A DNA stretch of 63,997 nucleotides, filler included, from Basidiobolus ranarum (Eukaryota), in the NCBI GenBank assembly GCA_040143965.1. It is 6 parts of 6 records of this genome, joined end to end, with 100 filler letters (N's around TTAATTAATTAA, not from the genome) between each part and the next. Parts side by side here need not be neighbours in the genome. Positions count along the whole stretch, not along the records: positions 1 to 10,848 come from JASJQH010000661.1; 5 more parts are not named here. One strand, written 5' to 3'. Positions 1 to 54,642 of the stretch are shown here, one piece after another. A program made the translations under genes and the position numbers. Below the pieces are notes generated by a model. The model saw nothing but the letters and a program-made list of their open reading frames with translations. It did no database searches and was not told the DNA's origin. Within the stretch, counting starts at the first letter, position 1, and the number at the start of each line of letters is the position of its first letter.

Positions 1-559
1 CTTTGCTCCATAACACAATATTTACATCCTCAGAACTTGATTAAATTGGTCATTAAGTTAAGTATGGGTATGATCCAACATTGTCACAATATCTTAAAAG
101 ATTGATGTCTTGATTGTCACTTTGTTTAGATTAGTATATAAGCTGAATAAAGTCCACAACATCTGGTGCTTTTCATCCCCCCTATAAGCTGACATGGTGC
201 TCTTTTGTCAAGTCATGGATATTGCCAGAATTCAACAGACATGTGTAAAATTTGTTTTTCAACATCAGGCTTTTGTTGGACAAGTTTGCAGACTTTTATC
301 TTTTCTGAATATCTCTGACAGTTATCAGATACAGCCAAGTCATTAATGGCAATTTTGATGAATGAAATGTTAACCAAACAAACATGAACTGTCCCAAACA
401 TAGTATATGGACAATTAGGTGCTCAAATCTCATTTCTTAGCAATACTACCAAATGTCTTCAAAATTGACCTGGAGGGACCCAACTTGGTTTTATATTTAT
501 TCCATGGAAAATATACAGGATTTTCTTGAACATGATAAAGTGGTCCCTAGTTATTGTAA

Positions 560-745
560 AGGTATTTTAGGAGCCTCTTGGAAGTGATTTGGAGAATTTG
601 AGAAATTGGTGGCTTTCACTTATGGATTAAATGAGTGAAAAGTTGACATATATAGTCTTACCAAAGGGTTAACAAATAAACATGTCAAATGCGGTCAGGA
701 AGGTCCCATATACATGTGTACCAAGCTTGGGGCCTCTAGGACAAG
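560..745 (-). mobile_element. Partial arm of the dispersed long-TIR (foldback/MITE-like) element
   Basis: Reverse complement aligns by eye with 48900-49088, e.g. gtattttaggagcc vs ggctcctaaatac, aaaagttgacat vs atgtcaacttt, ggaaggtccca vs tgggaccttcc. Confidence 0.7.
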
Positions 746-1207
746 TTTTAATATATATGTATGTATATATTTATATAAATATGTGCTATAAAATATTAGA
801 AACTCTCAGATATATACAGATATAATGGGAAACACGCTCGCAGCTACGCAGGCTGAAAATGAAGCGAAAATATTTAGGAGTACATTCTACATCCCATCTG
901 CACCCTCTCGACATCAGTTCTTTGCCACTGGCTATCCCTTGCTTGGATATATCTGATGTGCTAATATAGCCAACTGGTTGCCTCGAAGTGTAAGCTATAT
1001 CAGACGACTTCAAATACTTAGTTTAATCAGGGACGCTTCTGTACCGCAAAGTACTACCACCCCATTACGACATACTCATCGTTGATACTTTGGATAGGCA
1101 TTTTACTATTTATGATATTATAAGTATAAGCTAGACTGAGTAGGTTCAAAAAATACTACACATTTAACTATAATAATACAACTACTGGCTGGTTCTTCAA
1201 AGGCACT

Positions 1208-4200
1208 CTAGTCAGATTGACTACCTGACGATGACGTATCTTTGCCCTTCAGTGGAATGCAGATATGGTTATACCTGGAGCAGTGAATCACATTTTTATG
1301 CTGTGTACGGCATTTATATCCATACCAGCAATCCGGACGCGAGGTACACTCTACTGGAAGCTTTCCTAGACTTGACCTGATGTATTCAAATACAACCAAC
1401 GTCAGAAGTTTTTTAGAACAGTCGTTACATATCTTACTATCGCAAGATAGTGGTGTGGGAGGTTTCCAAGATCTCTCATAAGCTTTAGTGTCTACCACTA
1501 GATCTTTAACTCTCTCATGGAAGATCTGATCTAGCGATTTGCTCTCGTAGCGAAGCAATGAAGTCGCGAGGAGTTGATCAAAAGCATTCAGTCCTGTCAG
1601 TGAGTCTTCCGAAAATTCAAAAGCACTTAGAGACTTTGTTGTGCACTCCTTACTGCATAATGAGCAATAGTCATGGTCCTTAACTAGAACTATGTAGCGG
1701 ATCCGAACTTGGCTCACATCGTAGACGATGTACTCGTTATACTGAAGAACTAGCTCCACTTTTTTGTTGTTCGCGTCAACCTGAGCTGGGCGTTTGATCA
1801 CGGGTCCTTGGGGGACAATCAGCCCCTCTTGATTGGTATATACTGCTTTACTGAAATCAGGACCAAGTTTTCCCACTCCTTTAGTACTCTGGTAACCATC
1901 AACTGCCGTTTCCATATACTTCTCTTTCGTGGCTTCATACATGTTTCCCAAGGCTACTTCGCAAAGCAGCAGGCAAGAGTATCCCGTGGTCTGGTCATTA
2001 TAATCCGTTGAGTAAGCGACGGATTTATCAAACATATCGGCGAAATATACACCTTTTCCAAACATATATCCTGTAGCAGGAGCCTCTACTGGAGCAACAC
2101 GTAAACCTTGCGATAAGATTCCCAGATAGTTGGAGAATTTGGAGCCATGCCATAGAAGCATGCGATTACTATTATCTTTATGTGGCTGGAATCGTTCCGA
2201 CTCCCCTTCTTTGTCTAGACTCCAAAGATGAAGAAGCTCGTAATTACCCGTATTCTTCGACTGATGCATGTAGTTGTTGACCAATAAAAATTCCTCGCTG
2301 CTCTTATTGATCTCTCCCCAATTACAGCCAAGCGCCTTGTAACAATAATCTAATGGGCTAGAACTCTCTGCTCTCAATTGAGCAGCCAAGATAATATTAG
2401 CACCTCCATTAAGGTACCTTAGATTGTCAATGCGTCGCATCTCGTTCTGCAGCAACTCCTTAGTAGTGATTGATTGAATTCCTCCTAACTGAGCATTCTT
2501 GTACGGAATTTTCATGAAATAGCGATTGCTTAGGTTCGCAAGTCGATTATTTATCGCTTTGACAACATTAAAGTCATAAGTGGCACTGCATTGTGCTTCA
2601 TGTAATTCCAACACCGCATCTCTGATTTGGCACAGTAATTGAAAACCATCTTCCAGGGTGTTTCTGTCGAGATAGCCGAGGGGAATGTCAGCATTGGCAT
2701 CGAGCATTACCTCTCTCAGAGCAGCCACATTACAGAACATCTAGGGAGAAGTAAGCAACCAAGTAAAAAAAGAATATTGAACTTCAAGGCAATACATACC
2801 TTGATTGTAGCTTGAAGTGGAGTGGGCAGCGTACTCGGGGCACACTTCTTAAAATTAATGGGTTTCATCGTAATGCTATTATTGTAGACATTTCTTGTAA
2901 CTACGAATCGTCCTTCTTTTTCCACAAATTCTTCGGCTGAACGGTGTTCCCATAAATTTCCGGTTTTACTCTTGAATATCTTTCTAAACTCGATTTCGGA
3001 CTCTTCCTTACTGTTGAACGGAGTACGTTGATGCATTCCCTAAAACCAGAGATTTAGCAAGCCTCTTTGAGATCATGATGATGATATTTACCTGTTCACC
3101 AATCTGACCCCAACGGGTCCATACAAAATAAATGTCCTGCACAGTGTTGTGGATTATTTGCATCTTGTAAAACATATTTAACCCATAGTACCCACGTCGA
3201 ACATCCGTCTTATTCAACAATATATCATATGGCTGCTCATCCTCATCATAGTGCAACTTGCCAACTTGACTGAGGTGGGAAATTGGATCCACTTCCTCTT
3301 TCTTGTTCCAGTTTTCGGGCAGGACTCCACCATTTAGGCGTTTGGCCTCTTCTTCCTCCTTTGTTTTTGCTTCAAGCTCAAGTTTTTGTCTTTGCAATTC
3401 AGCGTCACCGTTAACATCTACAGTGAGCAAGCTGTCCACTGACATCTCCTCAACATCGTTTTCGACTTCCATGCAATTGTTATCTGGTGGCTGAGCGCCA
3501 TACTGCAAAAGCGCGCGGTAAAGTATTCCAGATTTTTGCCTCTGGGCATAATGAATGGGGCTCTTCTCGTGTATGTCACATAGATTAATCAAAGATCTCA
3601 ACCGATTACTATCCTTCAGGAATTGCTGCAACTTTTCCAGCATATCGGCATTATTATATGACACGCTACTGTATGGAGAAACAATGAAATGAATAATGGA
3701 CCGGCCTTCGTCGTCGACCTCCATAATGTTCATTTTAGCAGCGCCATTGGAATGTGTAAGTAATATCTCAAAAGCCCTGGTGTTATGCAGCATTATTGCA
3801 TGAAGTAATGCATTGACTGGTTTTTCAGATAGCTGATGAGTAGTCTTGAGGCAACTTTTAATGCTAGGATCAGCACCAAAGTCTAACAGCTAATGGTGGG
3901 GTAAGTAATCTAGTAACTGAATTTCAGCAATATGGATAACTTACCGAGGCGACAAGATCAGTGTTGTTTCTAATAGCATATTCTAGTGGGGTTTGACCGG
4001 TGATGGGATCTACCAAATTTAGATTGGGATGCTGCGTCCACAATAACTCGAGATGCTGTTTGATCAACCAGTTCTGTTCGAATAAGCATTTGTAGAAGAT
4101 GGTGCGACCCGTCTCAGGCTCCACATCGTTTAGAGAGACTTTGGACTCTAAAATCGGCAATACTGCTTCAGAGTAATGATTGATAGCCATAAGTAACGGC

Positions 4201-7200
4201 GATTGGTTGCTCATTGGATGCTTAACATCAAGCCGCACCCTTGCTTTGAGCAATGCCTAAACGAGAGACCATAACGAGTTAATGAATACACCATGGCCAA
4301 TATTGAAACTTTGATATGCTCCTACTTTCACTATTTCCATCTCTTGTTGCTCTAAAGCAACAACTATCGGATGAGTCACGAAGCTTTCATTCTTGGGGTT
4401 TTTTTTCGTGAACTTATAGAGACAAGGTCGGTTGACATCGCCACCGGCATCCACAATGATCTAGTTGATAATAAGGCGTTGAGTGCATGTTTTTCCACAT
4501 CTCTCCTTAACAATTAACTACCTTGAGCAAATGGAGACGAGACTTGACGGTATCCCCTTTCTTAAGTATACACCGCATCACTGCGTTTTGTTGCGTACTA
4601 TCGGTTTCAACACTGGCCAGAGCACCGTAATTAAGCAGCATCTTGGTGAAATAGTTTAAATCTACCGTCATTGACAAAATAAAGAGTGAATGAAATTACT
4701 TGTAGTAGTGGAATATCCCGATGCCAAGTAGCGATGGAGACGATGGACTCGAGATTCTTGACATCGTAGATGTCGGGCTTACCGCCATTCCTTAATATCA
4801 TCTAAAATGGCATAAGCATTTTTGTCAACATAGCCTGCGTGTAAAATTACCTACTTCAGCAATTTTTATATTCTTCTCTTGGACAGCGTGCCACAGAGCC
4901 GACTTTCCATCATAATCCACGATATCGGTATTCGCCTTTTGCTGTAGAAATAGTTTGACCAAAATATTATGGTTATTAGACGAGGCGATGAGCAGTGGGG
5001 TTCGACCATTCATGTCCTGAAGGTTAATATCAATACTGTGCACTTTGACCAGATCAAACATCTCCTCTGCGTAGTCTTCCCAGTCACTGAGTGGAGAATA
5101 AGTTAGCATGAAACGTGTACTGTACTTGAAGGATCAGTTTTACATACTTGGTGGTCGCAGGGAAATTGGCCATAACATGGAAGATGTTTTGCTTCTGTGC
5201 GTTTAATCCAAGCAACTGGATCGGTTGAGCTTTGCCCAGAATTATGGAAGCCAAATGGAATTGACCTGAAGAAAGCGTATTAATATGTAGTATATTTTAG
5301 TTCTCTGTACATCAACCCAGCTTACCAGCAGATAATGTGTCGTGCATTGCATCTAACAAGTCCATTCCCTTGTCCATGATCAGATACGCCAAAGGCATAA
5401 ATGATCTGTGCATGGCATAGTGAAAAGTCGATACATGGGGCTTATGTAAGTATGGTACATTCATCTCTCCAACACATTGGATACCATTATTTGCTAACAT
5501 GATACAATGTTCAACGTGTCCATAGATCAATCCAAGTTGGAATGCCGTTAACTCATCCTTATCTCTTGCCTCAACATCAACCTTCCGTTGTAACAAATAG
5601 GTAGAGCATGTAAAAGCACCTTGTATAGCTGCGTAATGGAATGGGGTTCTTCCAAATGAATCCTTTAGGTCCAATTCAATCCCCTTTTGATCAAGGAAAA
5701 ATCTAAGGATATCTATGGGATCATCTTTGGTACTAGTCAAGCTGTCTTTTTTCTCCCAATGCAATTGACGATACATCCCGTCGGTAAACCATGGATCTTC
5801 AAGACAAACATCCCAAGATTGTTTTCGACTTCCTGGAAGTTTCCTTTGTAATCCCTCGAAAAGCCATGATTCTAATGAGGAGTTATTCAACTTAAATTTG
5901 GTTACACTGGAGCGAAGTTCCCTTATGTTAGCTTCTTTTTTCTCTAACATGATTTTGTATTTCTCTGCTTTCTCTCGGGTAGAACTTGTAAATCTCATGA
6001 GTGGAATCAGGTGGGTTTCCACAAAGGCAATATGTAAGGGAGTTCTACCCTGGTAATCTTGAGCATTGATATCGGCACCGTAGCGTAGAAGTAACCCTTC
6101 GATTTTGAATGATTTGTTGGTTTGGCTTCGAGAATAATTACAGATGTAATGTAGTGGAGTCATATTGAATCGATCCACAACGGTGGCGACAGCTCCTGCT
6201 TCCAGCAGAGTTGTAACAATCTTGTGATTCTTGGTATTCACAGCGTGATGTAATATCGAGAGACCTTCGTTGTCTATGCAGTGTATGTCAGCCCCAGAAT
6301 TGATTAGTATTTGAACCAACTCCAAAATGTTTCTCTTAACCGCCTCGATTAAAGGTGTAGAGAAATTTGGATCGGATACATCCCTAGTGTGGATATTTGG
6401 ATTGGCGTTACAGTTCAACAGTAGTCGAGCCAACTTCAGATTTCCATTGATACATGCCAAATGTAGAGCTGTTTTGTTTTCTTTGTTCATATGATCGACT
6501 AGCATTAAATCGCCCACATTTCCGGAAGTGTTGGTATTCTTAACAGTCAACTCGGCATTTTCGATCAAAAATTTCACCATTTTAGTTTGGTTCAGAGCGC
6601 TGGCCGAAGTCAACAAAGTATCTTGCTCATTGGTGATTAAGGAAAAATCTACAAAAACTTCATTTGGGCGCTTACTAACGATGTAGTCAATCAGTATGTC
6701 ACTTTGACTGCGAAGTATCTGAATTAGCGTGGAGACTTTCTTGTTGTCTAGAACGTTTATGTCTGCTCCAGCATCAATCAATATCTAGTCAAAGAAGCCA
6801 ACCATTAATCTCCACAACCTTATTGTATCTAAAATACCTGATCCGAAATATTACTAACCTGAGCAGTTGTATAATGATTTTGAGCGATTGCCATCATGAG
6901 AGCAGTTTGATGGCTCTTGTAGGTGACCTTGTTGAGACACTCCTTCACTTTTGACGGCTCCCAGTTTACCTCCATATGTGACAACATCGCTTTCAACGCT
7001 GTTGTTTTGACTTGAATAGCAGCAATCATAATCGATGTCTCCCCCTCGCTGTTTTGAAACGACGGATCAGCTCCACCGGCTACGAGAATACTTACAGACT
7101 CCTCCCATAAAACCTTCTTAGATTTAAACACAATATTGTAGGCGCCTTTAACCTCATCAGTAAGTAGCTTTGCAGGGATATTGTCTTCGTCTAAATACGA

Positions 7201-10200
7201 TGCCAGCATCAGGGGAGTCTGGCAATGATTATGTCTATGAATTTGAATATTCTGGTTGCATCCATTAAGCAAAAAGAACTTCAAAGGTTCGGAGTATTGC
7301 AAGTTGGCAGCGAAATGCAAGAGTCCCCAACCAGTCCTGTGAGGTTCACTCTCCAGAGTGGCCTTAGGGTTTTTCAGATAAAAATCTTCGGGCAATTGTA
7401 ATTGACAATTCATATCAGGTTTCAGTACATGAATGAATTTCTGGGCCTCCTCTATCCAAAAATCCCACTGATACAGTAAGGATTCCAATTTCCCATCCTT
7501 ACTTTGTTTGTCAGATCGATACCGATACTCATAACCGTCTAGATATTTCACCATTCTGCTGGTTTTTTCCTCGAATTTTTCGTATTGAACATTGATTGCA
7601 TGTAGAAAACCCAACAGAATTGGGGTGTATCCATTTTTATCCACTTTATCAGCCAGATGTTTGACCTTAGAAGCTCTCTCCTCCCCTTCACCCTTTCTCC
7701 CTAACAATAATTCACCGATACTGGTGATACTCTCTCTTTCCCGGACAACATACTCATTCCATGTTTGAGGTATAGGATCCACCTCTAGCGATTGAGCTTC
7801 GGCGACTGCGCGCATGAAATAATGGAGTACATTGAGTCCCTGGCTATATAGAATATCCCAATAATTAGCCCCGTTTTCAATTAGAAAATGTATCATGGGC
7901 TTTTTGTCTTTCTCAAGAGCCACTTGAAGAGCTGTTTGCCCAAGATTATTCTTAACCTCGAGTTGAGCACCTTTGTCGAGCAACATCTGACCAATTTTCA
8001 CCTGAAGCTCAGCTGCTATTTGATCAGTAAACGACCGTTCGATTTCGTGCGAGTAATCGGAAGGATTCTTTTGAATCGTAATATGTACGTTGGATGCCAC
8101 TAGAATATGTAAAGGAGTGTCACCATTGATGTCTCTGATCGACAAGTCACAATTGGTGCTATCGAGCAAGGTTGCAATTGTTCTAATGAAACGTTCGGAC
8201 TCGTAACTCTTGTTATCACTGGTGAAGGAAATATTGCAGCAAGTGTGGAGCATAGTTCTTCCATTGGAGTCTTTAAAGTTGATGTTTACTTGAGGGTTAT
8301 TTATGAGGTAGTTCACCACTCTTATATGACCTTTTCTATGAGCAATTGACAGCGCAGATGTCTTCCAACTATTCACTGCATTTGGATCAGCATCGCCCAC
8401 CTCCATCAATAACTTTACCAATGTAAGCCATCCATAAGCAGCAGCATAATGAATTGGATAGTTTCCTGAAGCATCCCCGATGTTTACATCCACGCCACCG
8501 ACTTGGAGAAGATAAGCTGCAATATCATAATGGCCATTCTTGCAAGCGAGGTGGATAGGTTTTCTCTTGAATTTGTCATCTTTTTCTGGATCTGCTTGAC
8601 CCTTCTCCATTAGCATTACTACCGCCTCTAAATGGCCCATTTTCACAGCGTGAAACAAAGGTGTAGCCTTCGTCTCTCTATCAAGTACTTCAACATTAGC
8701 GCCGCCGTCAATCAGGGCGGCAATTGTCTCGGAATGACCATAATGAGCAGCAAAGTGCAACGCAGTCCATCCTTGAGTTAGTCGTGTTTCGTTTACCGAC
8801 TCATCGGGCAAATTGGCCAAAAGTAGTGGGATACAGTGGGCTTTACCATATTTGGCACAAAGCAACAACGGAGTAACTCGATGTAGGTCCATCTTGGTAA
8901 GGTCATGTTTCTTTTCAATAAGGAACTTCAACGGCTCAATCCCATCACAAACCACAGCGAAATGAGCCACCGTCCTACCGATACTATCTTCCTGGAGGAC
9001 TTCAGCCGAAGTTAAATTCTCGTAAAGTTCTTGAAGATATCTTACGTCGGGGTTCAATGCAGCAAGTTGTAAAGGATTGATAGAGTTATTCTCGGTGGCC
9101 ATTTTGAGGATCTGATTGCGTCGATAGTTTGATAAAGGTTGGTCATCTTTAAGGGCAAGAACCTCTTCATGTAAATGATTGAAACCATAATCGGAACCCA
9201 TCTCCTTGATTAAAGCAAGTGCAGCCTCTCGATTACCAGCTGCTGCTGCCTCGTAAACACCAATTAATTTCAGGCAGTAAGCAACATTTTCAGACGTGAC
9301 CATTAGAAATTTCACCATATCGCTGGTTAAATTAGAATTACGAAGAATATACACTATAGACGCATCACTGTCATCGTTATAAACTACTTTACGTTTGTTA
9401 TGGACCTCAAGGGTATCGAACGTGGTTTGCTGGTAAAACGCACTATCTCCCTCTCGATTTCCTCTAGCCTCCTTCACCATGCTAACGGCGTGGCCAAAGG
9501 TAAACCTGGAAACGTGTCCAGAAGATCTATAATTATTTGCACCTGAAGCAACGTCATCGGGAGAGATTCGAGTCTTGGAAGCATGAAGTAGATTTCGAAC
9601 AATTTGGAATTGGTTTCGTAATATTGCGTAAGTTAATGCCGTGTCATAAGGGACATCAGGTCGGCGACCATGGAGGTAATAGGTGATATTCTTCGTATCC
9701 AGGTAGATCTTATCAAAGAGTGGAATATTTGTGAGTAGATGATCAGCCTCCTGCTTCGAAGCATCTTCAGATTCATCCATTTGGTCAGTATCTCTGATTT
9801 TATCCTGTTCAACTTGAGCAAGTACTTGTACCAGTGGGCTGTTTGAACTTGACTCTGCAGTAAGAACAGCGCGCTTGAATTCACGCGCAGCACAAACCAT
9901 ACAACATGAGATGTCGGGTTGATCAGGGGAATTCATATCGTAGTCAAATCCGTCCCATACTGGAGGCACCCGCTTAAGGCGACTTTCGATTCGGTCATTG
10001 ACCTCCTGTTCATGTTGCATTTTCAAAAGTTCCGACTTTCTAGGAGTTTTAGGGGTTTTGGGAGTTTTTGGTGATTCTGACTTACCCTCACGCTTGACGC
10101 GTTTTCTTGGAGTATTGATGATCTCTTGGGATATTACGATATCTTGATCGTCATTTACTTGGGATACATCTCGGGTCTTGCGCTTACTCTTTGGTTTTTT

Positions 10201-10817
10201 CGAAGAGCCGGAGGTTTCTTTCCAATCAGGATCCGAGGAAGTATTTTTACGATGGGACCTCAGCTTGGCTTTTGCCCCAGTTTGAAGAGCTTCTTTCCAA
10301 CTATTGATTAAACTTACGTCCAAAATATTTTCCTCTGGCTCCCAAGAATCCTCATCTGACTCGTAGCCCTTCCACTTCACCCGATAATAGGTAACTCCCT
10401 GCTTCAACGGTCAGGACCAGTATAGAGACACATGAAGCAACCAATATTTGACTTACCTCATCTATTTTAGAGTCGACAATGGCTTCAGCGGTGTAGATAT
10501 CCTCATCCTCATCTTCATCTTCATCCTCGTCCGTAGCATCATCATCGTCATCGTTGGAGTGGTCTAACATTTTATCCAAGCCTGAGTTGGTGAATTCAAA
10601 CGACTCTAGAAATGGAACTAGGTTAATAGTAGAACTTATTTGAGAGCGGCCTAGGAAAAGGAATATAGTTCCTAGTTAAATTAAGTATTCAAATATCACT
10701 ACCATTATCCTCCAGAATACCACTGGTAGTCTTGATAAGTGCGGGCGTGGTGATGGCTAACTTCCTCGTCTGGCTCCGTGGAGGATATGACTTTGTTGGA
10801 GTGATTTCATGGCCCAT
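1208..10817 (-). CDS. Giant multi-exon PARP (~2,950 aa): chromodomain - ankyrin repeats - WGR - PARP regulatory - PARP catalytic - CHFR-like Cys-rich/PBZ domain (PME-5/tankyrase-like)
   Basis: Consecutive minus-strand ORFs join in frame through ~12 GT-AG introns. Approximate exons: 10817-10703, 10605-10457, 10398-6859, 6784-5326, 5265-5147, 5086-4852, 4801-4700, 4642-4522, 4460-4326, 4256-3945, 3889-3092, 3039-2800, 2740-1208. Chromodomain YTAEAIVDSKIDE/GVTYYRVKWKGYESDEDSWEPEENI; many G.T(P/A)LH.A ankyrin motifs; WGR FYKMQII...VWTRWGQIGEQG; PARP LLWHGS, GYMFGKGVYFAD, LQYNEYIVYD; C-terminal RPDCWYGYKCRTQHKNVIHCSRYNHIC. The first exon is the least certain. Confidence 0.9.
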
Positions 10818-10848
10818 GATTGTGATGTTAGAAGACGCAGCCACTCAT

Positions 10849-10948
10849 NNNNNNNNNNNNNNNNNNNNNNNNNNNNNNNNNNNNNNNNNNNNTTAATTAA
10901 TTAANNNNNNNNNNNNNNNNNNNNNNNNNNNNNNNNNNNNNNNNNNNN
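10849..10948. other. Artificial contig-joining spacer N44-TTAATTAATTAA-N44
   Basis: Identical 100-bp structure recurs five times; TTAATTAATTAA gives stops in all six frames. Confidence 0.98.
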
Positions 10949-11029
10949 TGGGGCGTATTTGAGTATCACAAAGTCCAGAGTTAGGGTCTAACATTGATTG
11001 ATTGAGATGCACAATATTATTTCGAGTGA

Positions 11030-11140
11030 ATCTATTCTTGTCTATTTCAATACATTCTTTTCTATTTCAATGTACTCTTGTCTACTTCAATCTATTCTTG
11101 TCTATCTCAATGTGAGGGGGTGGTTAGGGTTAGGGTTAGG
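11030..11140 (+). repeat. ~20-bp tandem repeat (about 4 copies) followed by a short TTAGGG tract
   Basis: Units resembling tctattcttgtctatttcaa, then ggttagggttagggttagg at ~11122-11140. Confidence 0.75.
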
Positions 11141-11244
11141 CTGAGTGATTTTTGTTGATATTATCTTTATTGAAATGGATTCTTGTACAGCGCCATATTT
11201 AGGTTACTTATTTTGATGGGGATGTACATTTTTGGAGATGATAC

Positions 11245-12801
11245 TTAATTTTCCATATTGACCTTGGCAACATTTTCATGTCGAGGAACAAACTTAGCCT
11301 CATATGGGAGTGGACTGAAACTCTTAGTGAAGCGAACTGTATCTACATCGATGATATGACCAGGCTTATGGGGTTCGATATGGAAGGCCCAAAGCAGTCT
11401 AGAAATAACACAGAATAATTCTCGTTCGGCCAAGAAAATACCTGGGCATCCGCGACGACCAATGCCAAAGGCAAAATGATCCCGCTTATGAATATCTCCG
11501 ATGTGAGCAAGATTGGCTGCTGACTCTTCAACACCCAAGTAACGATCAGGGTTGAATTTCTTAGGATCCTTATGACGTTTGGGATCAAAGTCAATGGTAT
11601 AAGAGTTCAATAACATGATTGTCTTTTTGGGAATGAAGTAACCCTTGTAGACATCATCCTCGGAGGTAGCATGAGCGATTCCAAGGAAAGATTTGGGGCG
11701 ATAGCGCATGGTCTCTTTAATAACGGCACGAAGGTAAGGCATTTTACTCTCATCCTCGGGAAGTGGGACTCGATCACGTCCGACAACACGATCCATCTCT
11801 TCATGAATCTTCTCTTGAACATCAGGGTTATTAGCCATCAAAGCAGTGAACCACATAAGCATGATAGATGGTCCATCAGAACCAGCAATCATCATAGCTG
11901 CACATAAATTAACGATATCAAGCTCCTCCAAGTCATACTCCGATTGATTCTCTAGAATATGCTTTGCAAAGCAAGGAATAGCCACCCCTTGTTTAATTTC
12001 CTCTTTCAATTGGCTCAAAAACTTCAAAGCAAGTCCTTCACGACGATCACGTAAGGCTACGGCCTTCGCACGCAAACGGGTAGGTAACCACCTTAGGATT
12101 GGGAATAGATCAAGCATTCTAGATGCTTTATCAACCGAGGTTATCCCGAACATCTCATCATTGACGTATTTCAACTCCTCAATCACGGGGTCATTTACAT
12201 CTTTAACTCGGTATCCAAAGGACATGGTCAAAATTGTATTGAAGGAGAACCGTACCAAATCAGTGGCAGGGTCAAACGACCTAGCGCCTTCTTTTCCTTG
12301 TTCAAGTAAACTCTGGACCAAATCACGGGACTCCTTGTCGATAATCGGTTGATATGACTCAACGGCAAAAGGATGAAGGGTACTATGGACTAACTTACGG
12401 AGAAGACGCCAATAGTCACCATAAGGAGCCATAGTAATTGAACGACCTCCACGTGCGATGATCTCTGTAGCAAGATATCCTTGACTACGAGAGTTATAAT
12501 TACGGCCACGAACGATAAACAGATCTCTAGCGATTTCGATATCATTTACAATGACCATCAATTGGGAACCAACACGGACCGAGATTAAAGGGCCATACTT
12601 CTTGCTCCATTCCGTGAACGTCTCGTATGGCAAATTGCCAATATCCCGAAGACTCCCAATGATAGGCCAACCACGGGGGCCTGGCGGAAGAGGACCAGGA
12701 TAGCGGCGACTATTGTAGACTCCAAGGCCAATTAGAAACAGGCCAAGTAATACAACGGCAGTGTTATACTCCATGCTGTGTTGATGATTTAGGTATGGCA
12801 T
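11245..12801 (-). CDS. Cytochrome P450, intronless, with N-terminal membrane anchor
   Basis: TM anchor, PPGPRGWPIIG hinge, ETMR (ExxR), FNPDRY (PERF-like) and heme motif FGIGRRGCPG. The I-helix reads AGSDGPS. Confidence 0.95.
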   Translation of the reverse strand: MPYLNHQHSMEYNTAVVLLGLFLIGLGVYNSRRYPGPLPPGPRGWPIIGSLRDIGNLPYETFTEWSKKYGPLISVRVGSQLMVIVNDIEIARDLFIVRGRNYNSRSQGYLATEIIARGGRSITMAPYGDYWRLLRKLVHSTLHPFAVESYQPIIDKESRDLVQSLLEQGKEGARSFDPATDLVRFSFNTILTMSFGYRVKDVNDPVIEELKYVNDEMFGITSVDKASRMLDLFPILRWLPTRLRAKAVALRDRREGLALKFLSQLKEEIKQGVAIPCFAKHILENQSEYDLEELDIVNLCAAMMIAGSDGPSIMLMWFTALMANNPDVQEKIHEEMDRVVGRDRVPLPEDESKMPYLRAVIKETMRYRPKSFLGIAHATSEDDVYKGYFIPKKTIMLLNSYTIDFDPKRHKDPKKFNPDRYLGVEESAANLAHIGDIHKRDHFAFGIGRRGCPGIFLAERELFCVISRLLWAFHIEPHKPGHIIDVDTVRFTKSFSPLPYEAKFVPRHENVAKVNMEN

Positions 12802-13630: not shown

Positions 13631-16612
13631 ATGACTGTATCCTATCCCGAAGAATCCTCTTTCTATGGCCGTAGAAGCATCAAGAAAGTCACTGTAACTG
13701 AATGTCCGTTTCTTTGGTCTACTTTCAGTATTCACCACAGCACATGAACTAATCCGAGTATATTAACTTTACCTAGACACTTCGGCTGAGAAAGCAAACC
13801 GTATTGAAAACAGTAACTTGGTTCGTCTTGTAGAGGCATACCGTACCTTCGGTCATAAATGTGCTAAAATCGATCCTTTGGGAATGTGGGTCAGAGAGTA
13901 CGTATTACCTGGCAAAAATCGAACTGACAAGAGGATTTACTAAGCTATACTCTATTATAGGCGTAATGCAAACTTGGATCCCGAATTGTACGGATTAACC
14001 AACATGAAGGCGGTGTACAATGTTGAAGGTATGAATATAGAATCTGGGTTGGAACACTTCCAGAAAATACTCAACCTTATTTCTAGGAATTCTTCAACTC
14101 AACGGACTCAAGAAGGCAACGCTTTCTCAGATTATCGATCACTTGGAGAAGACATATTGTGGTCATCTGGCATTTGAATTCATGCACATTGCGGTAAGAG
14201 AAAACATATCTACTGAGAATAGTTAAGAGGACTAAGCATTCCATTTAGGACGATAACCTACGCAGATGGTTCGCCGATAAAGCTGAATCCTATCTTAGCA
14301 CCAGCTTCACTCAACAGGAGAAAAATCAATTCCTCGAGCTTATGACCAAATCGGAGACATTTGATCACTTTATGTTACGCGAGTGTGGTCGTCTGAAGCA
14401 ATTTAGCATAGAAGGTACCGAGAGCGCCCTGATCGCTCTCCAACAGGTATTGGAGCACGCTAGTAAATGTGGAGTATTGGAAGTGGTGATGTGTCTAACT
14501 CATCGTTGCCGTATGCAAGTAATGATGGAGATATTGGGTGTTCCACAAGATTATTTATTCAGAAAATTCCAGGGACTCTCAGAATTCCCTGATGATATTC
14601 CTTCTCATATCATTGGAGATCTTGTATACAATGCCCAGACATCTATTGATCTGAATCTGGGTGGAATTAATCCATTGCACGTCTCAGTGGTTCCCAACCC
14701 ATGCCATCTCGAACTTGTCAACCCGGTTGCTCTAGGTAAAGTTCGTGCTAAGCAAACGGATTATCTCCCTCGTGAAACTGAGGATTACAAAGTGGAGGAT
14801 ATGGTAATGAGCGTCCAGATGCACGGTGATGGAGCTTTTACTGGACAAGGTGTCGTAACTGAAACCCTTGGCCTTACCAACCTACCACACTTCACCACTG
14901 GTGGTACTGTCCACATTGTCTTGAACAATCAAATTGGTGTCTCCACCGATCCTATTAATGGACGCTCCACCATGTACTCGTCTGACATCGGCAAGATGGT
15001 TGAAACTCCCGCCATCCATGTTAATGGCGATTACCCTGAACTGGCTGCCATTGCTGGCCGAATTGCCGTAGACTATCGTAAGACATTTGGAAAAGATATC
15101 ATCATCGACATGGTCACTTATCGTCGTCGCGGTCATAACGAAACCGAGGACCCTTACTATACTCAGCCATTGATGTACAAGGAGATTGAAACTCATAACG
15201 GTGTACCAGATCTCTACTCGAAGCAACTCCTTAACGAAAAAGTTATCGAATCCACTGACTTAGTCCAAACCATCAAGGAATCCCATAACAGCTACTTACA
15301 AGAGTGCTTCAAAAATGCACCCAAATTTAAGGTTGAACCATCCCATTTACTTGGAAAATGGTCATCTATGGTCATTCCAGATGAAACTGTTAGTAAGATG
15401 GATACTGGTGTTGACCTTGAAATCCTTCGTAAAGTTGGGTTACAATCGGTTACCGTTCCTGAGACTGTTGAGGTTAACGCAAAGGTAATGGAGCTGAATA
15501 TTCAGCCTCGCTTAAAGCAGGTAAATGAAGAGAAGGGTATTGGTTATCCTGGCGCAGAAGCCATGGCCCTCGGCTCATTGTTATTGGAAGGTTATGATAC
15601 TCGTATTTGTGGACAGGATGTCTCTCGTGGTGTCTGCATTCCCCGACACACCATGATCACATGCCAACAGACCAATACCAAGCATACTCCATTGAATAAG
15701 CTATCTGACAATCAAGGCAGATTAGAGCTAGTGGACAGCCCTCTTGGAGAATTGGCTGTAATGAGCTTTGAATACGGTGTGTCCCTGGAGACTCCCAATC
15801 GTTTGTGCATATGGGAAGCTCAACTTGGTGACTTTTATAATGGAGCTCAAGAAGTTATTGATGGGTTCATCTCTGGTGGTGAAGAGAAATGGCTTAGACA
15901 ATCTGGTCTTGTCCTGGTTTTACCTCACGGATACGATGGTGCAGGCCCTGAACATACATCCTGCCGTATAGAGCGCTTCCTTCAAATGTCTAGTGATCGA
16001 TTTGATGTGACTAATCCAGAAATCTATAACAATGTCAACTGGCACGTGGTTAATTGCTCAACACCCGCTCAATACTTCCACGTCTTACGTCGTCAAATGA
16101 AGCGCAATTTCCGCAAACCTCTCATTGTGGCTGGACCCAAGAAATTGATTCGCCTTCCTAACGCTGTCTCTAGCTTGGAAGATATGGGCCCCGGCACCTC
16201 GTTCCAGCCTGTAATTTCTGATGAAGATGCCGAAATCCCCTCAGTTAAGAGAGTCATTTTCGTCTCCGGAAAGCTGTACTACGAATTGCTTGAACAGCGA
16301 GAGAAGAGGGGATTGATCCATCAAATTGCTCTAGTCAGAGTGGAAGAATTTTCACCATTCCCTAAGGTTGATTTAGAGGTGGAGATTCGTAAATATGTCA
16401 ACGCTACCGAATTCGTTTGGTGTCAAGAAGAAACACAGAATGGTGGCGCTTGGTTCCATATGGAGCCAAGATTCAACCAAATCTTACCTGAAGGACAAAG
16501 AATCAAGTATATTGGTAGAGCTACTTGTGCTGCACCTGCTAACGGTATTTACATGATGCATATTCGCGAACAAAACCAAATTCATGATGATGCTTTCACT
16601 ATTTCACAATAA
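13631..16612 (+). CDS. Divergent ThDP-dependent 2-oxoacid dehydrogenase E1 paralogue (OGDH/DHTKD1 family), with several short 5' exons
   Basis: 5' exons encode MTVSYPEESSFYGRR.../...NSNLVRLVEAYRTFGHKCAKIDPLG. The main ORF 14342-16612 has PNPCHLELVNPV, HGDGAFTGQG...NNQIG (ThDP motif), GHNE, WEAQLGDF, LPHGYDGAGPEH and QEETQNGGAW. The start at 13631 is inferred from an upstream in-frame TAG. Confidence 0.88.
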
Positions 16613-21788: not shown

Positions 21789-21888
21789 NNNNNNNNNNNN
21801 NNNNNNNNNNNNNNNNNNNNNNNNNNNNNNNNTTAATTAATTAANNNNNNNNNNNNNNNNNNNNNNNNNNNNNNNNNNNNNNNNNNNN
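21789..21888. other. Artificial contig-joining spacer
   Basis: N44-TTAATTAATTAA-N44. Confidence 0.98.
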
Positions 21889-27397: not shown

Positions 27398-28419
27398 ATG
27401 GTATGAGAAAAGGATATTATATATACTTTAATTCCCCCCCCCACAGTCCATCTATTTTATCCTATATGTCTTCTAGAATTATTCTCACTTGACTTCTCAA
27501 TGCTTCGTAGTAATGGTGATACTAACTGTAATTTACTCATTCAATAGCCTCAAAACGAACACATAGAAGAGTCCATCAAGCGACATGGACGTCGTATGGA
27601 TCATGAAGAGCGCAAGTATGTTTTACTTTTATTTCTTCTTACGACCCTTTTTCTTTTTCAAACAATCGGAAATCCAGTCGTTAACAAATTATCAATAATC
27701 TTAATAGACGTAAGAAGGAGGCTCGTGAAGTTCACAAGAATGCCGCTTATGCTCAAAAGATTCACGGCTTGAAGGCTAAAATGTACAATAAGAAACGTCA
27801 TTCGGAGAAGATCCAAATGAAGAAGGCTATCAAGCAACACGAAGAGAAATCAGCCAAACAAAAGAGTGACGATGCTGTACCTACTGGAGCCGTACCAGCA
27901 TATCTTTTGGATCGTGACGGTGAGAAACGTGCTAAGGTCCTTTCAAATATGGTGAAACAAAAGAGAAAGGAAAAGGCTGGTAAATGGAACGTACCTTTAC
28001 CTAAAGTACGTGGTATTGCTGAAGATGAGATGTTTAAAGTTATCAAAACTGGTAAGAGCAAGGGCAAACAGTGGAAGAGAATGGTCACAAAGGCTACCTT
28101 CGTTGGTGACGGTTTCACCCGTAAACCTCCCAAGTATGAACGCTTCATTAGACCTATGGCTCTCCGTTACAAGAAAGCTCACGTTACTCATCCGGAACTT
28201 GGTGCCACATTCCATCTGCCCATTATCGGTGTGAAGAAGAACCCACAAAGTCCATTCTTCACTCAACTTGGTGTTCTTACTAAGGGTACAGTGATCGAAG
28301 TCAACGTCAGTGAACTGGGTCTCGTAACAACTGGTGGTAAGGTGGTATGGGGTAAATATGCCCAGATCACCAATAACCCCGAAAATGATGGATGTATCAA
28401 TGCGGTCCTTCTTGTATAA
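27398..28419 (+). CDS. NSA2: Ribosome biogenesis protein NSA2 (3 coding exons; the first is only the ATG)
   Basis: ATG|gtatga intron, then [23 protein letters not shown], second intron, ...[15 protein letters not shown]...[16 protein letters not shown]. Confidence 0.96.
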
Positions 28420-32714: not shown

Positions 32715-32814
32715 NNNNNNNNNNNNNNNNNNNNNNNNNNNNNNNNNNNNNNNNNNNNTTAATTAATTAANNNNNNNNNNNNNNNNNNNNNNNNNNNNNN
32801 NNNNNNNNNNNNNN
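32715..32814. other. Artificial contig-joining spacer
   Basis: N44-TTAATTAATTAA-N44. Confidence 0.98.
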
Positions 32815-37093: not shown

Positions 37094-40000
37094 TCAAGAT
37101 TGATCGCCTTCGTTGGTTACTTCAGAGTTGGCTGTGTCAACTGAAGTAACCGGAGGCGTTTCAAATATTCTATATTCCAAAGCTTGAGTCTTGACATTCT
37201 CTCTTATTATAGTCAAATCTTTGATGTCCAATGATTTTCCTGTAAACCACTGCTCACATTTCTTCTCCAGTTCCTCTTTAGCTTTACCACGCGACCATCC
37301 AAGGTCACCGTCTAACCATTTTCTCCATTTCTGATGCTTTTGTCGCTTCGTGTTTTCAAGACTACTCTCAGAAATGAGCTTACCCTTGCGTTTGAAATAG
37401 TCTTCCGTATTAGCAACAAAGTAGGTTTTCAGTGTATTAACGCATATTTTCAATTCCAACCCACTGTTCATGACCGCATCCTGAGGTGATTCATTTGATA
37501 GATTCGTTGGCCGATTTCTCGACAAGAAAGGCTTATTTTCAGGCTGTGGAACATCTTTTGTGGGGGTTAGGAGAACATAGCTGTCAATATACATGGACCA
37601 TTTTTCCTCCAACGATACAGCCGAATCTAAGGCGGAGTCCTCTCTACTAAGCAGCTGAATCATTACCGTTTTTTTACTATGTGCATACTCAATTCTATAC
37701 AGACACTCTTCGTTCTCTATCACATTTTCCGCCTTAGAGCGATACATCATTTGTTGTCTGAAACTAGTGGTTTCTTGATGATTTTCTTTAGTAAACAGAT
37801 CGATCAAATCCTTGCACTTGGGCTCCAGTACAATGGTTTGAATTTGGCGGAGAATAGCCATTACAAGCTTATCTATAGTAAATACTACGTATGCATGGAT
37901 TCCAAAAAGGTATCGCATTCCCTCTTCGTACCCTTGTTGATCTATTTCTCCTTCGAAGAGACGATCAACTAGGTTAAGGAACTCTTGATAATAGTCTGCA
38001 TTGGTATAATCCATATCTCCCAAGACATCCACTTTGTGTCTGAGCAATAAAGATCCAGCCACTGACTTGGTCTCGGTGTGAGGAACCTTTCTAGGAACTT
38101 GACTAGCCTTGGTCTTGATAGATTCAACGCGCGAATAAAGCAACTGATACAGTCGGAAGAACACATAAAACACGTTACTACCATAAAAATTGAACGATGT
38201 CTTGTGCTTAGCCTCCACTTTCGGTGTTTTAATTTGAATCCAGGTGGCTGATTGGGTTGAAGTGCCTTTCCCTCTACCGAATAACTTGGTTTTTGGATTG
38301 ATCGAATCAACCTCCATGACTTCGGACTTTCCACCCTCCACGCTACTCTCGTCAAAAGACTTCGACTTGGGTGAAGAGGCGGCCGAGGTTACTGACTCTT
38401 CGTTATCAGCGTGAGCAGCATCAGAGTCGGTATCTATGTTATCTACGGGGATAGGGTCTTCAACACCATTTACTGAATGCACCTTTTCTTTTGATTCGCA
38501 GTTAGAATTTGTAGAACCTTCGTCTTCAGAAATCTGGGATTCATTATCGGTGTCATCGGTATGAACACTACTGGCATCATCCTCTTCAAGGTACTCGTGT
38601 TCAATCTTTTCCAAGCCAAAAAATTCTTTAATGAAGTCCTTGATGAAACTCTCGATGCTGGTTTTATCCGATCCAGAAAAGCCACCTTGCTTTCCTAACG
38701 AAGAAAACAGAATTCTGGTAATATCACGAAATACCTCCGGGTCATTAAATAGATACTCGAACTGAAAATTATGTTTGAGGTCAGGGGGGTAACGATCCCG
38801 CTGCTCTCGTCGAATGTTCTCAATCTCGGTGGTGAGATATTTAGGAGTGATGAGTTTTCTATCATTCGATTTAAAGCCCACATTTTGATAATCCAACCCT
38901 TTGTAAAAGTTTTTGATATCGACCTCGCGCCAGATTCGATTCCATTCTCTTCTAGCACGTCTCCACTCTTCATCTTTTTGCTTCAATCTTTTCAAGACAA
39001 CAGGAACGGCGATGGTTGGATTATTATGGATAGCGTCGATGACCGCAACCCCCTGCTCCTTTCCATAAACTTTGTTGATCATGCGCTTATAAATACACAG
39101 CGATGGTCCTCCTAATCCTGGTGGAAGTTTGAATTTGGCCTTCTCTTCAGAAGTCATATTTTGAATTTTTCTAACAATAGGCTCTAATAATGCGATAGTA
39201 CTAAGATTGGCTTCTATATTGAGATCATAATCATATCTTTCCTCCTCACATTTATGCAACTTCTCCTCATACTGATTCTTTTTGTGAGCTACGAATCCGG
39301 ATTCTTCACTCGCCCAAGTGGGATGTGAAACCCATTCATTATTCAATACCTCATCACACAAGAGATCTCTTCCGGAACACTTAACTTTGGAGTCCTAGAG
39401 TCATTCAATTAAATATAGAACATGTGCAATCAACCATTCATAAATATTCCTTACTGCTTTAGGCAATAGTCGATAACTGGGTCCGTATCCTTTGCATCGT
39501 AAAAGATCTACTCTTGGTCTTGGAGCAGGTAAATTTTCCACCACCTGTTCATTACTAGGCACATATCCCACAAATGATTTGAACCATTCAAAGAGCTCCT
39601 TATTTCCACCGATATAAGATTCGACTCTTTGTACAAGTACAGTCTGATCCAATATTTCTTGACTAAAAAGATTCAAAACTTTCAGGAACTCATTGTATGA
39701 TTGCTTATTTGACAAATGCTTCTTAACCCGATCAAAGAAACTTAATTCTTCGGTGGAAGCGGGAAGTTTGGGAGATTGTGGAGATAACCCGGTGGATGCT
39801 GAAGTAGTATTTATTCCAACTGGTCCTGGTGATACCTCATTCATCATCTTTTGCGTACCATGTTTGGCACGCTTCGATTTGACAGTTCCGCTAGCAGTAA
39901 TAGCTTTTTCTCCAGTTACGTTGGCCCCTTTCCTTTTTTTATTGGGTATAGGAACTGTAGTGTGAGTTGGGCTTGCAGTCGAAGATGGAGGTTGTGCAGC

Positions 40001-43634: not shown

Positions 43635-43734
43635 NNNNNNNNNNNNNNNNNNNNNNNNNNNNNNNNNNNNNNNNNNNNTTAATTAATTAANNNNNNNNNN
43701 NNNNNNNNNNNNNNNNNNNNNNNNNNNNNNNNNN
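43635..43734. other. Artificial contig-joining spacer
   Basis: N44-TTAATTAATTAA-N44. Confidence 0.98.
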
Positions 43735-54542: not shown

Positions 54543-54642
54543 NNNNNNNNNNNNNNNNNNNNNNNNNNNNNNNNNNNNNNNNNNNNTTAATTAATTAANN
54601 NNNNNNNNNNNNNNNNNNNNNNNNNNNNNNNNNNNNNNNNNN
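54543..54642. other. Artificial contig-joining spacer
   Basis: N44-TTAATTAATTAA-N44. Confidence 0.98.

Follow-up and report, generated by a model that had tools for sequence, protein, structure and literature searches.

The locus is, with high confidence, one intact protein-coding gene of a Basidiobolus-related fungus and encodes a member of PARP Clade 1A of about 2,900 aa, from a fungal branch that has gained an HP1/Polycomb-type chromodomain and a CHFR-type tail ending in a PBZ finger. The window, i.e., the whole stretch of DNA analysed (63,997 nt), consists of six pieces joined by N44-TTAATTAATTAA-N44 linkers; the gene is located on the first piece, a separate contig (1..10848). The order of domains given in the preliminary description, namely, chromodomain, ankyrin repeats, WGR, PARP regulatory domain, PARP catalytic domain and PBZ, was borne out by Pfam, phmmer and the predicted fold.

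The minimal model of the whole gene (1208..10570, minus strand) comprises 12 exons encoding 2,900 aa and ends with the stop codon TAG at 1210-1208. Exons 1-6 are located at 10570-10457, 10398-6859, 6784-5326, 5265-5148, 5086-4855 and 4801-4700, and exons 7-12 at 4641-4522, 4460-4326, 4256-3945, 3889-3092, 3039-2800 and 2740-1208, all on the minus strand; the exon joins rest on splice signals and on homology to other gene predictions. The spliced coding sequence of 8,703 nt is in frame, with a single stop at its end. All 11 introns are 52-74 nt long and of the GT-AG type, one of them with an AAG acceptor, and in the family alignment none of the 11 exon junctions coincides with a gap. At a G+C content of 41%, open frames of 1,193 and 510 codons far exceed chance expectation. 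Non-coding gaps inside the gene are all 74 nt or shorter, therefore a second promoter would not fit. Exon 2 (1,180 codons) holds the chromodomain together with the first ankyrin clusters, and exon 10 runs from the last ankyrins into the first half of WGR. The preliminary description, which joined about ten minus-strand ORFs, was right as to the single gene but not as to the number of exons, which is 12; its junctions 10457/10398 and 6859/6784 are exactly those of the splice model.

A candidate additional 5' exon (10721..10817, minus strand), starting with ATG at 10817, would join position 10650 via a 70-nt intron (10720-10651) and give a protein of 2,959 aa, which agrees with the length of ~2,950 aa and the start at 10817 proposed earlier. 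This exon is in frame and rich in S, T, K, R and P, similar to the N-termini of orthologues. The acceptor of the intron, with its polypyrimidine tract, is strong, and the donor, GTATTC, is weak. The frame is open up to the contig end at 10848; accordingly, the coding sequence may in fact begin beyond it.

The protein aligns end to end with proteins of ~2,930-3,210 aa of Endogone, Powellomyces, Rhizophlyctis and Phascolomyces, in four single blastp HSPs. In the case of Endogone P0121, one HSP covers residues 123-2924 against residues 26-2884 of the model (37% over 2,957 columns). The closest relative is protein P0001 of Basidiobolus meristosporus, in line with the early-diverging fungal origin proposed previously. 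It is annotated with 934 aa, begins within an ankyrin repeat and is without the N-terminal two thirds; most likely it is a truncated gene model, a shorter product being formally compatible. Among 15 fungal homologues scanned, WGR was found in all 15, PARP in 14, zf-CRD in eight, PBZ in five and Chromo in four. Thirteen further long proteins matched by the tail alone contain ankyrin-WGR-PARP (11), zf-CRD (9), PBZ (5) and Chromo (3); all seven of these 13 that were looked up are 'hypothetical proteins' of chytrids or Mucorales.

The chromodomain (aa 24-78; 10279..10501, minus strand), identified by Pfam and PDB matches, is split by intron 1 (10456-10399). The exon-2 part alone matches Pfam Chromo with E 1.2e-10 and 41.5 bits against a cut-off of 25.1. 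Among 51 PDB chromodomain matches at E<=0.01, the best are the methyl-lysine-binding chromodomains of Polycomb, CBX2/8, MPP8, CDYL, SUV39H1 and HP1, with E from 4e-7. All three residues of the aromatic cage are present in the alignment columns: Y26 (10495-10493), W47 (10374-10372) and Y50 (10365-10363), minus strand; the columns are those that form the cage in HP1/Polycomb structures. These positions are common to the model and to its closest PDB matches, the HP1/Polycomb/CBX/MPP8 chromodomains (E 4e-7 to 1e-4), whereas the partner of the chromodomain differs, being a chromoshadow domain or a PRC1 module in the HP1/Polycomb class and a PARP in the Basidiobolus protein. The Y/W/Y positions are kept in the orthologues of Endogone, Powellomyces and Rhizophlyctis. 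Mucorales, where the chromodomain fusion was reported, have a degenerate cage. Since Chromo was found in only four of the 15 and three of the 13 relatives, and the cage of Mucorales is degenerate, methyl-lysine reading is not family-wide. The chromodomain is followed by a basic linker rich in S/T, P and K (aa ~80-165; 10018..10275, minus strand), delimited by translation and regex scan; its NLS-like clusters (KKPK.., RKRVKR), which occur together with TPK/TPRK repeats, may serve for nuclear targeting.

The ankyrin region (aa ~290-2180; 3482..9645, minus strand) extends over exons 2-10 and contains ~25-29 recognisable repeats in several clusters. Pfam Ank families match it with E down to 2e-64, and a repeat HMM made ad hoc from its own sequence gave 29 matches; the first ~230 aa of the region are degenerate. 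Atlas look-alikes of aa 150-520 (score 0.90, taken only as a lead) were ankyrin clusters without exception. The PDB matches are generic, namely, DARPins and ankyrin-1/2; tankyrase-1 does not stand out.

The WGR domain (aa 2265-2345; 2935..3229, minus strand), with W2304 at 3112-3110, is split by intron 10 (3091-3040); Pfam WGR matches exon 10 with profile positions 1-42 (33.4 bits, E 4.9e-8) and exon 11 with profile positions 43-77 (20.7 bits, E 4.4e-4). The motif reads W-G-Q; in the family alignment, W and G are kept, while the R position is variable within the fungal clade, so that activation by DNA breaks as in PARP1 is not to be assumed. The PARP regulatory (helical) domain (aa ~2379-2524; 2339..2835, minus strand) is split by intron 11 (2799-2741). 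Its exon-12 part matches Pfam PARP_reg at profile positions 14-135 of 135 (E 1.2e-13, 51.7 bits), and its first helix, encoded by exon 11, aligns across the family. The catalytic domain (aa 2538-2744; 1679..2299, minus strand) covers positions 1-198 of the 199 of Pfam PARP (E 5.3e-59, 199.5 bits). The H-Y-E triad noted in the preliminary description was recovered by alignment to PARP1 (164 bits), in which the motifs LLWHGS, GKGVYFAD and YNEYIVY align with their counterparts: H2588 (2149-2147), Y2622 (2047-2045) and E2726 (1735-1733), minus strand, presumably equivalent to human H862, Y896 and E988. The best PDB matches of the catalytic domain are PARP1 (E 2e-47), PARP2 (2e-43), PARP3 (2e-23) and PARP4 (2e-13).

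The C-terminal tail is a CHFR-type cysteine-rich domain with PBZ, as judged from phmmer and the predicted fold, which rescue a PBZ call below the Pfam threshold. The domain (aa ~2739-2900, ~160 aa; 1211..1696, minus strand) carries a CxxC...CxxC pair kept across the family. The PBZ finger (aa 2858-2882; 1339-1265, minus strand) has the form C-x5-C-x8-H-x5-H, with a preceding R and an aromatic-G motif. Pfam zf-CCHH (PBZ) falls just short (21.0 bits against a cut-off of 22.7) and reaches E 4.1e-7 and 1.6e-6 in orthologues; zf-CRD matches weakly (E 0.0085) and only at profile positions 69-155 of 158, therefore the PARP tail lacks the first Cys clusters of CHFR. In a phmmer search of the PDB with the tail, the CRD of CHFR (2xoc/2xp0) was matched with E 1e-8 and APLF with 0.6. 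The AlphaFold2 model of the tail (pLDDT 86.4, pTM 0.79) was compared with the PDB by Foldseek: only four matches reached E<=0.001, each a CHFR CRD chain in complex with ADP-ribose ligands (E 3.5e-7, with TMq 0.67 over 159 columns), and the next match has E 1.6. The CHFR CRD (PDB 2XOC, 2XOY, 2XP0) is thus the sole solved structure resembling the tail.

The published PBZ consensus is [K/R]xxCx[F/Y]GxxC...Hxxx[F/Y]xH with C2H2 ligands (PMC4030884); a regex match to it was found at aa 2858-2882, from which only the loop length departs. Human CHFR and the tail are alike in the Cys/His ligands of PBZ, the preceding Arg and the aromatic-Gly motif, but the loop from the second Cys to the first His is 8 residues long in the PARP tail and 7 in CHFR. 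CHFR itself is an FHA-RING E3 ligase, unlike the PARP-fused tail; among 40 mid-size proteins found with the tail, zf-CRD is present in 39, RING in 37 and FHA in 32.

Phylogenetic placement was based on a quick maximum-likelihood tree of the region from WGR to PARP, unrooted and without tankyrase and PME-5 rows, which comprises 34 rows after removal of 5 of 39 with aberrant spans. The model and Basidiobolus form a pair (support 100) within a fungal clade of 15 rows (support 99), which also includes orthologues of Mucorales and Umbelopsis and is nested in the ankyrin-PARP group. A branch with support of 100 separates all 25 ankyrin-PARP rows from the PARP1 and SAP types.

All features of Clade 1A were found in the protein: ankyrins N-terminal to the cassette, a catalytic domain immediately preceded by WGR and the regulatory domain, the H-Y-E triad and the grouping with other ankyrin-WGR PARPs in the tree. 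The arrangement ANK-WGR-PRD-PARP, according to the available text of Citarelli 2010 (PMC2964712), defines Clade 1A and has been recorded in fungi since 2010; the order of ankyrins, WGR, regulatory domain and H-Y-E is identical to that of Clade 1A, or 'Clade 1-ank', in the available parts of that paper and of Perina 2014 (PMC4245714). Clade 1A members of Dictyostelium (Q54E42/ADPRT3), Acytostelium, Paramecium, Naegleria and Saccoglossus group with the model and are split from PARP1 with support of 100. The non-fungal members sampled end 0-7 residues past the catalytic domain and are thus tail-less; none of them has Chromo, zf-CRD or PBZ among its precomputed Pfam families (0 of the 120 listed). 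PME-5 (TANK-1) of C. elegans, compared by description only, has ankyrins and a PARP1-like C-terminal cassette as in the model, and neither a chromodomain nor PBZ is mentioned in the corresponding passages of PMC2964712 and PMC4245714. In these passages it is cited as nuclear, chromosome-associated and DNA-damage-inducible; Citarelli 2010 (PMC2964712), in the same part, was unable to assign it to a clade with certainty.

The protein had been regarded as part of an undescribed system, which is not supported: besides the Clade 1A backbone, known since 2010, a preprint of July 2026 (10.64898/2026.07.25.740670), in its available text, describes ankyrin-WGR-PARP proteins of 2,648-2,995 aa from four species of Mucoromycota. 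Two of the four have CHROMO, and a link of CHROMO-ankyrin-WGR-PARP to heterochromatin is already put forward there as speculation. These proteins are of the same family as the protein studied here, with the same backbone, an N-terminal chromodomain and a near size (2,900-2,959 aa here). Full-length orthologues with Chromo, PARP, zf-CRD and PBZ are deposited publicly as 'hypothetical protein', and the gene is one more orthologue of deposited proteins and no new enzyme class. Unlike the Mucoromycota-only set in the available text of the preprint, which lists Zoopagomycota with plain WGR-PARP only, the present set includes a Basidiobolus-like lineage and chytrid orthologues with an intact-cage chromodomain, and its PBZ/CRD tail is conserved.

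The best explanation for the whole, with a probability of roughly 0.6, is a Clade 1A gene acting as a chromatin-tethered PAR writer with reader-writer-reader coupling. The protein would be nuclear and bound to chromatin, where the chromodomain with its intact Y/W/Y cage would dock on methylated lysine of the H3K9me/H3K27me 'ARKS' type, and the long ankyrin solenoid would serve as a platform to which substrates or partners bind. The cassette of WGR, helical and catalytic domains, with its H-Y-E triad, is predicted to make poly(ADP-ribose), and its helical domain would probably hold it autoinhibited until WGR senses a ligand. PBZ/CRD would bind the polymer, whether attached to the enzyme or to its neighbours, and may thereby retain or concentrate the enzyme where PAR is made, coupling reader, writer and reader in cis. 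As domain logic read from the sequence, methyl-histone docking, nucleic-acid activation and PAR rebinding are plausible, whereas nothing was found that speaks for the link to genome defence suggested in the preliminary description; for nuclear chromatin binding, methyl-lysine docking, the ankyrin platform, PAR synthesis and PBZ rebinding jointly, the chances appear about even. If true, the coupling provides a one-protein model of cross-talk between histone methylation and PARylation. Speculative and unlikely is an ancestral self-reinforcing 'PAR on heterochromatin' circuit of early-diverging fungi, in which one polypeptide would read H3K9me/H3K27me with its chromodomain, write PAR on local chromatin or ankyrin-bound clients and re-read it with the CHFR-type PBZ, so that PARylation would spread or persist on silent or transposon-rich chromatin; Dikarya would have lost the module, and outside fungi it would never have come together.

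The same domains may belong to a DNA-damage-response PARP of the PME-5/ADPRT kind, in which lesions drive activity via WGR, the ankyrins are a scaffold, and the chromodomain and PBZ are accessory or partly vestigial, PBZ, e.g., recruiting the protein to breaks at which other PARPs have made PAR, in the manner of CHFR and APLF. The Clade 1 placement, the PARP1/2-like catalytic domain and the full regulatory domain are consistent with this role, as are the many relatives with a missing or degenerate chromodomain; the available text of Perina 2014 (PMC4245714) cites a proposed DNA-damage role of the ankyrin Clade 1 protein PME-5 and places PBZ mainly in DNA-damage-response proteins. However, three other lineages, belonging to two phyla, share the fully intact cage with this protein, a sign of selection for the binding of methyl-lysine. 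Moreover, the WGR motif has not kept its arginine, and neither DNA-binding zinc fingers nor a BRCT domain were found by Pfam in this gene and 15 fungal homologues. Such a role is considered possible, though rather unlikely.

Quite improbable is an analogue of tankyrase, with ankyrin clusters capturing specific clients, whose PARylation would serve their turnover or a function at telomeres or the spindle. The large ankyrin array N-terminal to a PAR-forming H-Y-E domain is shared with tankyrase 1/2 (Clade 4), and tankyrase-1 ARCs are among the ankyrin PDB matches (E 3.4e-28), although DARPins and ankyrin-1/2 are matched far more strongly; the preprint 10.64898/2026.07.25.740670 remarks on the resemblance to TNKS1/2 and speculates on a telomere link in its available text. 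Tankyrase, however, has SAM and is devoid of WGR and the regulatory domain, and the model is reversed on all three: SAM was not found at E<=0.01 in 9 of the 12 ORF pieces, the other three being short ankyrin exons, or in 28 relatives. The catalytic domain is PARP1/2-like, with PARP1 at 2e-47 and no tankyrase match in the PDB at E<=1e-5, so the preliminary description rightly set the protein apart from true tankyrases; Clade 1 ankyrin PARPs are probably without tankyrase functions, as argued in the available part of Citarelli 2010 (PMC2964712). An artefact, i.e., two or more genes (chromodomain/ankyrin and ankyrin/PARP) or a decaying unexpressed pseudogene, is very improbable. It would agree with the AAG acceptor, with exon joins drawn from splice signals and homology and with the 934-aa annotation of the Basidiobolus relative, from which the N-terminal two thirds are missing, but not with an uninterrupted 8.7-kb frame with introns all 52-74 nt and GT-AG, four orthologues collinear over the full length, and catalytic, cage and zinc-ligand residues that are all intact. 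In addition, introns interrupt ankyrin repeats, WGR and the regulatory domain alike, therefore the adjoining exons cannot stand alone.

In the fungal branch of Clade 1A, a conserved module of the CHFR type, predicted to bind PAR, is fused to the writer. Such a CHFR-like PBZ tail on fungal PARPs is apparently new in print. It contradicts the available text of Perina 2014 (PMC4245714), where the PBZ motif was not findable in Fungi, and that of the preprint 10.64898/2026.07.25.740670, where canonical PAR reader domains are stated to be absent from fungal PARPs and writer-reader coupling may have a later origin. The term PBZ does not occur in the available text of the preprint. The spread of the family to chytrids and to a Basidiobolus-like lineage looks unreported. 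The chromodomain fusion extends beyond Mucoromycota, its intact-cage form being present in chytrids, Endogone and the Basidiobolus-like lineage, and is therefore probably ancestral to the fungal clade.

The PARP domains and those fused to them are carried by minus-strand stop-to-stop ORFs between positions 1208 and 10675. They were assembled into a model of one spliced product (10570–1208, minus strand) with 12 exons and 11 GT-AG introns of 52–74 nt each, every junction of which was inspected on the sequence, including 10457/10398 and 6859/6784, proposed in the preliminary description and correct. The translation is 2,900 aa long with a single, terminal stop. The intron 4699–4642 has an AAG acceptor, chosen because a perfect ankyrin consensus is restored there, and the family alignment is free of gaps at this junction. 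A longer product of 2,959 aa, evidently the version of the preliminary description, would result from a possible additional 5′ exon, 10817–10721, followed by a 70-nt intron whose GTATTC donor is weak. The reading frame on the 5′ side stays open up to the contig end; accordingly, the 5′ end of the gene may lie beyond the contig.

The exon structure itself joins the domains: a 1,180-codon exon holds the second half of the chromodomain together with the first ankyrin clusters, the final ankyrins share exon 10 with the first WGR half, one intron interrupts WGR and another the regulatory domain. The largest non-coding gap in the locus does not exceed 74 nt. In blastp, orthologues aligned to the spliced product end to end in one HSP each: Endogone P0121 (residues 123–2924 against model residues 26–2884; 37% identity over 2,957 columns), Powellomyces P0124 (residues 125–2908), Rhizophlyctis P0126 (residues 238–3187) and Phascolomyces P0123 (residues 83–2929). 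The locus is collinear in tblastn, and all 11 junctions are free of gaps relative to the orthologues. The sole counter-indication to a single gene is the nearest relative, P0001 of Basidiobolus meristosporus (63% identity over 921 aa, against model residues 1968–2884), which is annotated with only 934 aa, begins within an ankyrin repeat and is missing the N-terminal two thirds. This gene model is probably truncated; a search over the length range of 656–2,088 aa found no separate Basidiobolus protein for the N-terminal part. Truncation of this kind may also affect the models from Entomophthora (2,679 aa) and Umbelopsis (2,464 aa). The PARP gene is real and intact, and the preliminary observation of a single gene with a chromodomain, ankyrin repeats, WGR, PARP and a PBZ finger is confirmed.

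The WGR, regulatory and catalytic domains are all complete according to Pfam. Among PDB structures, the catalytic part ranks PARP1 first (E = 1.7e-53), followed by PARP2, PARP3 and PARP4, and no tankyrase was among its matches at E ≤ 1e-10 or E ≤ 1e-5, in agreement with the earlier statement that the protein is not a tankyrase. The motifs around the catalytic residues H2588, Y2622 and E2726 are identical or nearly identical to those of PARP1. The WGR motif reads W-G-Q (3112–3104, minus strand; residues 2304–2306), and its third position is occupied by Q, G, S, A or P across the fungal clade; since the arginine is replaced and variable, PARP1-style interdomain signalling through it may, judging from the sequence, not apply.

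Family placement was analyzed with a quick maximum-likelihood tree of the region from WGR to the catalytic domain, unrooted, comprising 34 rows and no tankyrase or PME-5 rows; 5 of the 39 assembled rows had been dropped for an aberrant extracted span. The model is paired with the Basidiobolus protein (support 100) inside a fungal clade of 15 rows (support 99). This clade lies within the ankyrin-PARP group, which is split from PARP1/SAP-type proteins with support 100. A domain scan of the fungal homologues found WGR in 15 of 15, PARP in 14, zf-CRD in eight, PBZ in five and Chromo in four.

Behind the catalytic domain, the protein continues for about 160 residues (~2739–2900) in a tail whose CxxC...CxxC pair and PBZ-like finger are conserved in the family. 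The Pfam PBZ match on the model is slightly under threshold. By regular expression, the finger fits the published PBZ consensus as given in PMC4030884. In phmmer, the tail matches the cysteine-rich domain (CRD) of CHFR with E = 1e-8, versus 0.6 for APLF. The AlphaFold2 model of the tail (98-row alignment) has a pLDDT of 86.4 and a pTM of 0.79, and all four Foldseek matches in the PDB at E ≤ 0.001 are CHFR CRD chains from crystals containing ADP-ribose ligands, at E = 3.5e-7 and TMq 0.67; the next match has E = 1.6. Compared with the CHFR finger, the Cys-to-His loop of the model is one residue longer. A search with the tail among 1.84 billion representative proteins gave 332 matches at E ≤ 0.001, from which a set of long (n = 13) and a set of mid-size (n = 40) proteins were sampled. 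Among the long proteins, 11 of 13 have the ankyrin-WGR-PARP arrangement, with zf-CRD in nine, PBZ in five and Chromo in three; the seven looked up by name are all 'hypothetical proteins' of chytrids or Mucorales. The mid-size proteins contain zf-CRD (39/40), RING (37/40) and FHA (32/40) and are thus CHFR-like E3 ligases. The sampled ankyrin PARPs from outside the fungi lack such a tail: their sequence stops at the catalytic domain.

At the other end of the protein, the exon-2 part of the chromodomain alone scores 41.5 bits with Pfam Chromo, and the structures in the PDB that match the domain best are those of Polycomb, CBX2/8, MPP8, CDYL, SUV39H1 and HP1. The aromatic cage (Y26, W47 and Y50) is preserved in the model, Endogone, Powellomyces and Rhizophlyctis; in Phascolomyces, Rhizopus and Mycotypha it is degenerate. 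In the Mucorales proteins P0123, P0127 and P0128 the aromatic cage residues are replaced, but they are kept in the chytrid, Endogone and window proteins. The Mucorales with the replaced cage are the same group in which the CHROMO fusion was reported. The July 2026 preprint discussed below hints that the chromodomain came from a retroelement; for the PARP gene this was rejected, since the 1,180-codon exon is shared with the ankyrins, the matches are of the HP1/Polycomb class, and a Pfam search of 9 of the 12 ORF pieces gave no match to integrase or reverse-transcriptase families.

Directly after the chromodomain, a regular-expression scan identified a basic linker rich in S/T-P-K (10018–10275, minus strand; residues ~80–165), which contains the clusters KKPK.. 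and RKRVKR and TPK/TPRK repeats. These are reminiscent of nuclear localization signals and of SPKK-type minor-groove or CDK-site motifs. Ankyrin-like repeats extend over residues ~290–2180, where about 25–29 were counted with an ad hoc HMM. Residues 150–520 have no Pfam match; Atlas look-alikes point weakly to degenerate ankyrin (score 0.90), and no distinct domain was established there. A specific likeness of the ankyrins to tankyrase ARCs was also considered and dropped, the PDB matches being generic. No tandem repeats were found within the gene in a scan of 1–12000.

The architecture put forward in the preliminary description is thus borne out by Pfam, the orthologue alignments and the fold of the tail, but its view that proteins of this kind were undescribed is wrong. 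In Citarelli 2010 (PMC2964712), Clade 1A is defined by ankyrin, WGR, PRD and PARP in Dictyostelium, fungi and Paramecium, and its members are argued not to be tankyrases. Perina 2014 (PMC4245714), which describes 'Clade 1-ank', records proteins that fuse PBZ to PARP from Entamoeba, Dictyostelium, Capsaspora and lancelet; in Fungi, according to that paper, PBZ 'could not be found'. A preprint of July 2026 (10.64898/2026.07.25.740670) reports ankyrin-WGR-PARP proteins of 2,648–2,995 aa from four Mucoromycota species, two of which have CHROMO, speculates on heterochromatin and telomere roles and assigns only plain WGR-PARP to Zoopagomycota. According to it, fungal PARPs show no canonical PAR reader domain, and neither 'PBZ' nor 'CHFR' occurs in its text; its supplementary tables might list such matches. 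Full-text search of the literature for PBZ together with Mucoromycota, Chytridiomycota or Rhizopus turned up no paper that connects them apart from Perina 2014. Apparently, the conserved CHFR-type PAR-reader tail on a fungal Clade 1A writer is new in print, as is, apparently, a chromodomain with intact cage in fungi other than Mucoromycota. The mechanism proposed for a chromodomain-PARP-PBZ protein is a prediction from domain logic.

The window of 63,997 bases is not one genomic stretch: six pieces of about 10.9 kb each are joined end to end by identical linkers, N44-TTAATTAATTAA-N44, at 10849–10948, 21789–21888, 32715–32814, 43635–43734 and 54543–54642, so features on different pieces are not genomic neighbours. 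The PARP gene as modelled is confined to piece 1 (1–10848), and the other pieces provide no genomic context for it. No second gene was recognized on piece 1; 3′ of the stop codon (1–1207), ORFs are all short (≤78 aa) and G+C is lower, at 0.35–0.38. A telomere context was rejected: the sole TTAGGG run, of three units, sits on the adjoining, unlinked piece and is therefore irrelevant to the PARP gene. That piece opens with a 20-nt tandem repeat of 4.2 copies (11029–11111), followed by the run of about three TTAGGG units (11124–11141); the region 11029–11141 may be subtelomeric or interstitial. Genes outside piece 1 are of ordinary eukaryotic types, represented in Pfam by cytochrome P450 (11245–12855, minus strand), 2-oxoglutarate dehydrogenase E1 (14249–16612, plus), ribosomal protein S8e (27685–28419, plus), a Sin3 co-repressor with PAH, Sin3_corepress and Sin3a_C (37094–40468, minus), zinc alcohol dehydrogenase (50383–51072, minus) and an Nfu/NifU scaffold protein (62181–62834, plus).
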